Shown here: one piece after another, positions 50,592-52,915 of the stretch
Layout: each line of letters starts with the position of its first letter
Position numbering within the stretch: the first letter of the stretch is position 1
NCBI GenBank assembly: GCA_048886685.1
Contig: JBHLKM010000016.1
Coordinates: 1 to 64,000 of the forward strand
Direction of reading: 5' to 3'
DNA length: 64,000 bases
Source: Candidatus Hodarchaeota archaeon
GTDB lineage: Archaea; Asgardarchaeota; Lokiarchaeia; Sigyniarchaeales; SOKP01
Made by a program: the position numbers and the translations under genes
The notes under the pieces: model-generated
Seen by the model: the letters and a program-made list of their open reading frames with translations, nothing else
Told to the model about the DNA's origin: nothing
Databases searched by the model: none

Positions 50592-51801
50592 CTATTTTTG
50601 CTTTGAAAGGTATCTAATTTTTACGAGTAAATCTCGAAGTTCCATTTTATCATTGTCAGATGTTATGTATTTCTTTTTTACTCCTTCTGAAAGCGGGATT
50701 GTTTCAATTTTATTTCCTTGGAGAGATACCATATTCCCAAATTTACCTTCTAAAACAAGTTTCATTGCTGCTAATCCAAACCTTAATCCTAAAATCCTAT
50801 CAAATGAATTAGGTGGTCCGGCACGCATGGTGTGACCAAGAACTACACTTCGACATTCGAAATCTACTCCATTTTTCTCAAATTCTTGTTTTAAATCGTC
50901 TCTTAAGTTTAATTCTTCAACAATTATTTGGGACATATTCAATTTTACTAATAATGGATTACCAAATGTATCCTTAGGTAATTTATCAATTGTTTCTTTA
51001 GATATGGTTTTAAAATCTCGGTTAAGAGATTCTAAATTCGGATAGGCTCCCTCTGATGTAGCAATTATATGATATTTATAGCCAGCATTAACTCTTTTTT
51101 TCAAAACATCAATAACATCTTTTTCTAAGTCAAATGGCGTTTCTGGGATTAATATTATATCTGCTCCAGCAGATATTCCGCTATACATTGTTAAAAAACC
51201 TGCATCTCTGCCCATTACTTCTACAACAAATACTCTTTGATGCGATCGAGCCGTGGTTGTAAGATTATCCATCGCGTTAGAGGCTAGTTGTGTCGAACTC
51301 CAGAAGCCAAACGTATAATGTGTTCCCTGCAGGTCATTATCAATAGTTTTTGGCACTCCTACTACTTTAGCATCAGCGAATCTATACAAATTATCAGCCA
51401 CTCCAAGAGTATCGTGTTCAGTTTAAAACAGAAGTTATTCTAAAACTCCACCGATAGCAATTAGAGCATCTATTCCTAATTCTTCAAACTTTTTGGTTAA
51501 TTCTTTAGCTTTTTCCTCTTTTGCACTTACTCCCTTAAATGGATTCGTCCTACTTGTATATAGGATAGTCCCCCCCACAGTATGTAGGTCATCATGTTCT
51601 GCTATATTAAGTGGAATTGTTTGGTTTTCCACAAATCCTTTCCATCCCTTAAGGATGCCAACACATTCAATCCCAGTATCATAAGCTTTAAGCATGATTC
51701 CATAAAGTACGGAATTTAAACCGGGACAGTGTACGACAGTTAAGGAAACCTTTAGACATGGCTCCGCCGCCCGTGAGAATTCCAACTTTTTTAATTGCTA
51801 T
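50592..51801 (-). CDS. pfkA: PPi-type 6-phosphofructokinase, three exons (51801-51762, 51730-51446, 51415-50592), 382 aa after splicing, probable ATA start
   Basis: Joined exons read IAIKKVGILTGGGDCPGLN...GGTILYTSR...IGGDDTLG...PKTIDND...EVMGR...LGH; GGDD plus PKTIDND indicate PPi dependence. Confidence 0.88.
51416..51445 (-). other. Putative BHB-type mRNA intron 2 of pfk (30 nt)
   Basis: Insert TTTTAGAATAACTTCTGTTTTAAACTGAAC splits GGA G^AC GAT and carries in-frame TAA; 9-bp inner hairpin; exon-exon helix TATCG/CGATA. Confidence 0.8.
51731..51761 (-). other. Putative BHB-type mRNA intron 1 of pfk (31 nt)
   Basis: Insert CCATGTCTAAAGGTTTCCTTAACTGTCGTAC splits GGA G^AC TGT and shifts the frame; central helix GCGG/TCGT with bulges AG^C and AC^A. 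Confidence 0.8.
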
Positions 51802-51935
51802 TTATAATCACCTTCATTAATTTTTATTTTTTTGACTAATTAATTAAGCCATTTTTGATTAAAAATGTTATTATGAAGTTATATTTAAAAAGATATAAAT
51901 GAAATTATCTTTCCATTCCTTTTTTTTTTAAAAAT

Positions 51936-52337
51936 CTATTCATTTTCATTATTTCCTAACCATTCTTTAAATGTTTTTTGAGGGATCATTTCCTGTATTG
52001 ATATACCTGTCTGTTCTTTAAATTGCTTTTCTATCTCCCTCGTCCATAGCTTCTTATCTATCTGATCATTCAGCTTTATTAAGACTATACCTCCTCTTGC
52101 ATCAAAAGCATCACGTTTAAATGAATCTCTTTGCCTTGTTTTGTATTTACTATGCCAATACATCTCCCAAAACTCATATAATACCTCATATTTCTTTCCA
52201 TTTATCAAAACACTGTTATATCCATCTACATGAGATCTCGGGTGAACTTTTTTATTCACTCCCTTAATTTTTATTTGATTTCCTACAATATTGCGTAAAT
52301 GTGTATGATCAAATTTTACGCCAAATATTTTTTCCAA
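51936..52337 (-). CDS. Small Vsr/PD-(D/E)xK-like endonuclease domain protein
   Basis: HVDGY...LYEFWEMYWH...RDSFKR...IVLIKL pattern resembling DUF559/Vsr-like nucleases. Confidence 0.55.
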   Translation of the reverse strand: MEKIFGVKFDHTHLRNIVGNQIKIKGVNKKVHPRSHVDGYNSVLINGKKYEVLYEFWEMYWHSKYKTRQRDSFKRDAFDARGGIVLIKLNDQIDKKLWTREIEKQFKEQTGISIQEMIPQKTFKEWLGNNENE

Positions 52338-52345
52338 TAGTAGGT

Positions 52346-52915
52346 TTATTCTGATTCTTTTTTTTCAAATTTTTCAAATTTATATTTTGATTTATCTTTT
52401 GGGATTATATAGCTCCCTCCTTCAGAATCAATAATTTTTAATGTAAATTCGAATTTTCCTTCTAATGCGTTTTTCAAATTATTTAAAAGATCTTCAATCT
52501 CAGGTATTTCTGGGTCTCCTTCTTTGAGATTCTTCCTATATATTGAAACGGCACTTTCAAATCTATATAAAATACCTTCTACATTAGTATAATAAAAATT
52601 GGCTCTGGGACCTGGTTCTACAATTAATTCGAGCTCAGGAATTTCTAATTTTCCTACAGGGGAACGGTAAATCTTTGATTTAAGGTCTTCTTCAGTTGTC
52701 ACTTTCAAGGTCATAATTCCTGGATCCATATTTGTTGTTAAAGGAATTACATCATTTTTATGAAAGCTGCAAGTATCGCATTCGAACTTCAATATGAGCA
52801 TCTTGTCTCCATCAGGTAAATCATAGACATTCTTAATGATGTCTATTGTGCCATTTTCACATGAGGGACATTTAAATGAATATAAAATTTCACTATTTTT
52901 TTTCTCAGTAGACAT
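52346..52915 (-). CDS. zpr1: ZPR1 zinc-finger protein
   Basis: CPSC...CDTC, IPEL.L..EPGP, TNVEG.L, D.EGGSYI. Confidence 0.9.
   Translation of the reverse strand: MSTEKKNSEILYSFKCPSCENGTIDIIKNVYDLPDGDKMLILKFECDTCSFHKNDVIPLTTNMDPGIMTLKVTTEEDLKSKIYRSPVGKLEIPELELIVEPGPRANFYYTNVEGILYRFESAVSIYRKNLKEGDPEIPEIEDLLNNLKNALEGKFEFTLKIIDSEGGSYIIPKDKSKYKFEKFEKKESE

Follow-up and report, generated by a model that had tools for sequence, protein, structure and literature searches.

The PFK-family gene (pfk) of this Lokiarchaeial genome is interrupted by two short inserts, both of which are very probably spliced mRNA introns of the BHB (tRNA) type; their shape and conservation were observed, while their removal from the mRNA is predicted. 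The flank that they share can mostly be attributed to the Gly-Gly-Asp motif together with the requirements of the BHB fold, and they appear to spread as DNA patches, probably driven by endonucleases docked at pfk. We regard this explanation as rather probable as a whole. Throughout, the window denotes the entire 64,000-nucleotide stretch of contig JBHLKM010000016.1 that was analysed.

On the minus strand, positions 50592-51801 contain the three exons of a PFK-family protein, and a frame of 382 aa results once 51761-51731 and 51445-51416 are removed. Exon 1 (51762..51801) consists of 13 codons plus a G, followed by intron 1 (51731..51761; 31 nt, frameshifting; 29 orthologous alleles in five genera), exon 2 (51446..51730; Pfam PFK positions 11-100), intron 2 (51416..51445; 30 nt, with in-frame stops; 21 alleles in GTDB genomes and 8 metagenome contigs) and exon 3 (50592..51415; Pfam PFK positions 108-276). 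The probable start is a non-AUG codon, ATA at 51801, downstream of an SD-like GGTGA at 51812-51808; in-frame ATG, GTG and TTG are absent there (51812-51799, minus strand). A leader with the SD-like GGTGA and ATA, ATT, ATC or TTG is common to intron-1 alleles across genera, was also found in L029, L209, L289 and L295, and looks like a replacement first exon. Upstream on the same strand lie a nuclease remnant (51936..52346), which corresponds to the C-terminal 136 aa of a Vsr/EDxHD-like endonuclease and has no start codon, and a ZPR1-like gene (52346..52915), the usual upstream neighbour of pfk. On a different contig of the window genome (G000), a pfk fragment of 232 nt (C5:244014-244245, L157:415-646) lies close to a repeated element. 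It contains intron 2, is 95% identical to the window copy and ends after DDTLG; it is either a stray patch or bin contamination (8.4%).

Both inserts described in the initial annotation proved real. Their flanks are GGCGGAG^AC (intron 1) and GGTGGAG^AC (intron 2), the Asp codon is split after its first base (phase 1) in both cases, the bulges are AG^C or AG^T and AC^A, and target-site duplications are absent. The protein motifs TGGGDCPG and IGGDDTLG were both restored solely in the GGYGGAG^AC register, while slid borders gave GGH, GEH, GGA or GGV. The two inserts are also unrelated in sequence, as had been noted; their alignment score was -5, and 67% of unrelated Loki intron pairs scored as high. 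At the borders set by the protein, the BHB geometry was found, with a 4-bp central helix, a 3-nt bulge on each strand and the cut after bulge base 2. In intron 1, exon GCGG (51767-51764) and intron TCGT (51736-51733) form all four pairs of the central helix, between the bulges AG^C and AC^A, and the loop is GTTTC (51749-51745); 96% of this structure was paired, compared with 31-56% for slid controls. In intron 2, GTGG (51451-51448) and CTGA (51421-51418) form three of four pairs, a relaxed motif, accompanied by a 9-bp stem, the loop ACTTC (51435-51431) and a 5-bp exon helix. A search of window positions 51000-52500 against Rfam gave no relevant match.

The conservation of these structures suggests that the flanking helices of both introns are under selection. 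The central helix of intron 1 covaries, GCGG occurring with CCGY and GTGG with CCAY. Among intron-2 alleles, the 9-bp stem is near-invariant and the G-A mismatch of the central helix is constant, and closely related pairs showed 0 of 54 core wobble differences against 12.5 expected. Moreover, the window genome encodes alpha-like (catalytic-type) and beta-like (structural-type) EndA subunits as well as RtcB, and the relaxed BHB form should be acceptable to the (alpha-beta)2 type of EndA found in Asgard archaea (PMC5829648).

Among the 148 genomes of the class with pfk, intron 1 was found in 29 and intron 2 in 21, and the remainder read straight through. All carriers belong to one family (five genera), and neither intron was found outside it among the groups searched. 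All 50 intron alleles of this search, like the metagenome alleles, measured 30-32 nt. Longer versions carrying an endonuclease ORF, which the initial annotation had proposed as ancestors, were sought in these 50 alleles, and neither such a version nor an ORF relic was found. The shared AC end to which it had drawn attention was incidental, being present in 8 of the 50 orthologous alleles (intron 1: AT 15, AG 5, AC 4, TT 4, AA 1; intron 2: AG 10, AA 5, AC 4, AT 2). The penultimate A is bulge position 1, which is nearly constant in pfk intron alleles and was A in all 22 tabulated intron sites. Ectopic copies were also absent: the intron-2 pattern matched eight metagenome contigs, all at pfk, and the intron-1 pattern matched seven of 250 genomes, once each and always at pfk.

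Coding inserts outside pfk were gathered by comparison with intact orthologs from 1.6 Mb (48%) of the congener G005, taken as separate regions for a motif-free census, and from the uL10 region, purA and endonuclease loci; a few further sites were added where removal of the insert restores textbook motifs. The registers of the histone, C40 and RuBisCO-like inserts are uncertain, and the RuBisCO-like insert was excluded from all counts. A fixed target GGNGGAG^AC did not hold up, as none of the 24 other Loki coding inserts matched it and their phases were even (9/7/8). GGAG^AC was present at one of these 24 sites (purA, TGGGGAG^AC), and AG^AC in an Asp codon at two (purA and argG, the latter GGATTAG^AC) against 0.64 expected (P about 0.13). 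Features common to the insert sites are a helix strand of high GC content (64%, in a genome of 31% GC), either G or T at -3, A at -2 (88% of the 24 non-pfk sites) and a purine at +1; Gly made up 13 of the 44 residues preceding the split codon. In the window genome, six in-frame exact 9-mers were empty, compared with 5.1 expected. Inserts in conserved windows were weakly enriched relative to the detection filter (10.7 vs. 10.1 of 12, P = 0.08). A de novo genome scan for a BHB with restored frame gave no excess over mirror-geometry decoys and was used for leads only, the sites kept having an intact ortholog or a textbook motif.

The likeness of the two pfk flanks is not plain chance, since they are more alike than any of the 231 pairs of other sites (best 7/9). 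GGYGGAG^AC is common to both introns because each lies in one of the two Gly-Gly-Asp loops of PFK. Six of the nine bases are dictated by Gly-Gly-Asp. Of the others, A at -2 follows the preference seen at bulges in general and C at +2 is the partner of G at -7, which leaves Y at -5 (chance about 0.17). A site profile trained on 22 non-pfk sites and applied to 1134 positions of intron-less pfk alleles ranked the two pfk sites 8th and 12th (top 1% or so), in the best register of each motif; when purA and uL11-A were omitted, they ranked 19th and 27th. All 50 intron-bearing pfk alleles read GGYGGAG^AY, while the exact 9-mer occurred at 0 of 79 intron-less pfk sites. In carriers, conservation of the flank was limited to about codons -7 to +1, and wobble conservation ended about where pairing ends. 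The absence of the exact 9-mer from intron-less alleles and this limit of wobble conservation suggest that the 9-mer is a by-product maintained by the intron. On statistical grounds, the shared 9-mer thus appears to be mostly Gly-Gly-Asp plus BHB requirements. Of the sequence- or structure-specific insertion proposed initially, a site preference linked to structure was retained, and a sequence-specific GGYGGAG^AC target was not supported (no match at the 24 sites, even phases, six empty copies). The same observations largely describe the outcome that the initial annotation had itself set against its proposal, namely no flank bias elsewhere and a shared site that follows from two Gly-Gly-Asp motifs.

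The unrelated mini-introns have a loop in common. In 12 of 22 unrelated introns, three or more base pairs close an R-N-N-U-C loop, compared with 0.64 in shuffles, and the same holds for three of four held-out sites (shuffle rates 2-5%) and for 16 of 21 intron-2 alleles, with variable middle bases. This loop may either bind a splicing cofactor or reflect how the introns originated. The purA intron of the window genome (C2:178230-178201, minus strand; L176-L194), located at WG^DEGKG, occurs in 7 of 19 congeners, ends in AT or AA and mostly has RNNUC loops. In the uL11 gene (L161-L175), introns occupy three different positions in a stretch of about 60 nt, and all of them have an RNNUC loop. Further BHB coding inserts of the window genome lie in uvrB, dnaG, genes for Fe-S proteins, GH38, rnhB, cobO and a LURP-like gene and include a tandem pair (C3:215413, C1:28177, C18:88180, C20:41204, C4:207110, C40:3422, C3:76487 and 76537, C15:2954, C17:95399, C6:98861, C2:163723). 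G005, which is intron-less at pfk site 2, has seven BHB coding inserts, including those in uppS (at a D^GN motif) and a histone gene (C1 of G005: 337488, with a duplicate at 691071, 1121957, 1129379, about 1222999, 1505072 and two minus-strand sites). Many introns in the tRNA genes of the window genome have A at bulge position 1, and on a rough count a few have RNNUC-like loops.

The distribution of the introns over the pfk tree, built from a sample of 73 alleles enriched for intron carriers, was without signal; 23 and 18 changes were required for the two introns, compared with 23.3 and 20.8 after shuffling. In close pairs of alleles with and without an intron, 76 of 108 core wobble sites differed against 32 expected, while in control pairs of intron-less alleles 40 of 96 differed against 26 expected. 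The intron state flips between near-identical alleles along with DNA patches of 170-500 nt. For example, identity between L209 and G117 is about 99% for pfk and about 95% for ZPR1, apart from a divergent patch that spans intron 1 from -135 to +34; between L211 and L213, the divergent stretch extends from -250 to +250. The patches take in untranslated upstream sequence, including the promoter region. Such co-conversion of flanking DNA with the intron was seen in close pairs only; long tracts across genera were not seen on average. Judged from these allele comparisons, gene conversion transfers the introns, within short patches of DNA, from lineage to lineage. The homing proposed initially is therefore supported in a broad sense, by patch conversion and docked free-standing endonucleases, whereas its version with loss of an intron-encoded ORF found no support because all 50 alleles were 30-32 nt long. 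Reverse ligation of intron RNA, the other proposed route, fared no better, as no copy of either intron was found at other sites and the intron state changes together with flanking and promoter-region DNA. A query with the reverse transcriptase family PF00078 gave no match in the window genome.

Two endonuclease families, unrelated to each other, were found docked at pfk. Since the ZPR1-like gene is the usual upstream neighbour of pfk, the nuclease remnant at 51936-52346 represents an insertion between the two. It matches the C-terminal end of a 616-aa protein of G136 with 77% identity; the latter is encoded tail to tail with pfk, beside a duplicated pfk tail. Full-length members of this Vsr-like family are free-standing proteins of 600-740 aa, and close homologs of the remnant adjoin pfk on every informative contig. 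Pfam, PHROGs and Foldseek gave no name for the nuclease. The best structural matches of its nuclease domain were I-Bth0305I (Z 9.3, rmsd 2.8, 93 aligned), Vsr (Z 9.1) and the RAP domain of FASTKD4 (8.8), which were tied. The invariant residues E18, D63, H87 and D96 probably correspond to the EDxHD catalytic motif (PMC3239194). The N-terminal part gave a treble-clef zinc-finger match only, below threshold. The nuclease gene lies beside pfk in five host alleles of known state, two of which are related, and all five have at least one intron (background about 30%). The family is bound to neither intron, as intron 1 is missing from G136 and intron 2 from L282. The pfk tails duplicated near the nuclease begin at residue 357 or 225, a long way from either intron, and the introns may therefore only hitchhike. 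Such tails (L235:4625-4708, residues 357-384; the starts of L271 and L282-L285, residue 225 onward; L251:4286-4387, residues 350-383), with the nuclease adjacent or absent, seem to mark former insertions into the 3' portion of pfk.

The other family comprises double-motif LAGLIDADG genes, located directly upstream of pfk in G147, G018, G022, G105 and G123, that is, in 5 of the 29 genomes with intron 1 and in none of the 95 remaining genomes. When both families were considered, docked endonucleases occurred at 7 of 37 intron-bearing alleles and 0 of 87 intron-less alleles, counts that overstate significance because the genomes are related and fragmented. In the remaining 30 of the 37 intron-bearing genomes, no endonuclease was detected adjoining pfk. 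The presence of a free-standing endonuclease beside pfk is nevertheless associated with that of an intron, as collaborative homing would have it. By analogy, the mobility of the pfk introns most likely resembles the collaborative homing of phages, in which case the docked enzymes would do the cutting and pfk would hold the cut site. Distant relatives of the pfk-docked LAGLIDADG genes flank argG (intron at L^D, AG^AC; L290:2840-2875), a korC-like gene with a 29-nt intron (L292:2985-3013) and a RuBisCO-like gene (L293) whose insert register is uncertain. In the window genome, a double-motif LAGLIDADG-like gene with a Pfam match below cut-off (C20:41434-42612, plus strand) is divergent from the GH38 gene and lies 230 nt from the GH38 intron.

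In the mechanism we favour, heteromeric EndA would excise both introns from the pfk mRNA and RtcB would join the exons. In a genome of 31% GC, Gly-Gly-Asp loops would supply the G-rich strand for the 4-bp helix, the A of bulge position 1 and the G-C pair closing the exon helix, and selection for pairing would then freeze the wobble bases. Gene conversion would carry the introns between lineages as short DNA patches, with free-standing homing endonucleases docked at pfk cutting intron-less alleles and the intron protecting the donor. A related reading, which we find doubtful, takes the Lokiarchaeial mini-introns as one class of element, defined by the RNNUC-loop hairpin and by four nucleotides that pair with the exon of the host gene. 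These introns would act as self-removing patches of immunity to free-standing homing endonucleases, the Vsr-like lineage using either Gly-Gly-Asp site and the 9-mer being the core of its DNA target. It is unlikely that both introns are simply old, with vertical inheritance in the family, repeated loss through recombination with intron-less alleles and endonucleases that cut elsewhere as bystanders. Confinement to five genera of one family among the groups searched, intron-2 distances that follow host distances (rho 0.38), a few intron-less alleles that retain the paired flank (L015, L011, L114) and the known retention of introns at conserved sites (PMC2814812) all fit such a history. However, it requires about 20 changes per intron in 73 alleles, and differing intron-1 types occupy the same site on scattered branches. 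Moreover, the docked endonucleases are restricted to intron-bearing alleles, and the replacement leader with GGTGA and a non-AUG start is common to intron-1 alleles of different genera.

Placement of both introns by sequence-specific machinery, or by one nuclease lineage recognising GGNGGAG^AC-like DNA or RNA, is quite unlikely. The uniform flank of the 50 intron alleles, the purA and argG sites and the occurrence of intron 1, intron 2 or both in carriers of the Vsr-like gene would agree with it, but the 24 other sites lack the motif, six exact sites are still empty as chance predicts, a profile made without pfk already predicts both sites, and the lack of the exact 9-mer at 79 intron-less sites points to a state kept by the intron. 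An RNA-level origin, in which an excised circle was ligated into a new mRNA site whose 4-nt helix strand was compatible, reverse transcription then fixed it and intron 2 arose from intron 1, is very unlikely, even though the helix strands of the two sites are cross-compatible (GYGG) and unrelated mini-introns share their size and the RNNUC loop. The two introns are unrelated, no copy of either was found elsewhere in the 250 genomes or in metagenomes, state changes accompany promoter-region DNA, and no general route of copying or reverse transcription emerged from a census of Asgard tRNA introns (10.64898/2026.10.13.758758); as a means of spread, the RNA-level route is disfavoured. Classical homing, in which long introns with their own endonuclease ORF entered both sites and then shrank, would match the typical insertion of group I introns and inteins in invariant motifs (PMC2814812). 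It is, however, extremely improbable, given that the 50 alleles from 148 pfk genomes and the metagenome alleles all read 30-32 nt and hold no relic of an ORF.

Among known systems, the BHB introns of cbf5 in Sulfolobales and Desulfurococcales (PMC2738675) and of HVO_1309 in Haloferax (PMC10485636) are short, ORF-less and of the relaxed form, as in pfk. They also share the cut after the second bulge base, the split codon of a catalytic residue, a heteromeric EndA and patchy presence. Unlike them, the introns here occur twice in one metabolic gene and also in dozens of other genes; those of pfk flip between near-identical alleles with DNA patches, have endonuclease genes docked beside them and carry the RNNUC loop, and their splicing is predicted. 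The collaborative or trans homing of phages, namely F-CphI with the psbA intron of S-PM2 and MobE with nrdB of T4 (PMC2988022, PMC2814812), likewise pairs a free-standing endonuclease with an adjoining gene whose conserved motif is split by an ORF-less intron, and involves co-conversion of flanks. In contrast, pfk is chromosomal and archaeal, its 30-nt introns are predicted to be protein-spliced rather than being group I ribozymes, and two unrelated nuclease families are present, which would do the cutting. Like I-Bth0305I (PMC3239194), its best structural match, the pfk nuclease has a Vsr-like fold at its C-terminus, where invariant E, D, H and D follow in matching order; it is, however, a free-standing protein of 600-740 aa whose N-terminal part may be zinc-finger-like instead of consisting of NUMOD repeats, and its copy in the window is truncated. 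Asgard tRNA introns (10.64898/2026.10.13.758758) resemble those of pfk in repeated gains at BHB-compatible sites and the lack of general copying. No route of arrival emerged from that study, which was confined to tRNA genes, whereas pfk indicates a route of spread at the DNA level.

In the literature searched, EndA-type mRNA splicing was documented for two archaeal genes, and the arrival of Asgard introns was left open. The pfk locus offers a testable route of spread, endonuclease-linked DNA conversion, and a site rule based on a G-rich helix strand and a bulge A instead of a fixed sequence. Moreover, the signature of the RNNUC loop can be used in gene finding. The locus also shows that gene callers split core genes that are in fact intact, in archaea that are the closest prokaryotic relatives of eukaryotes.
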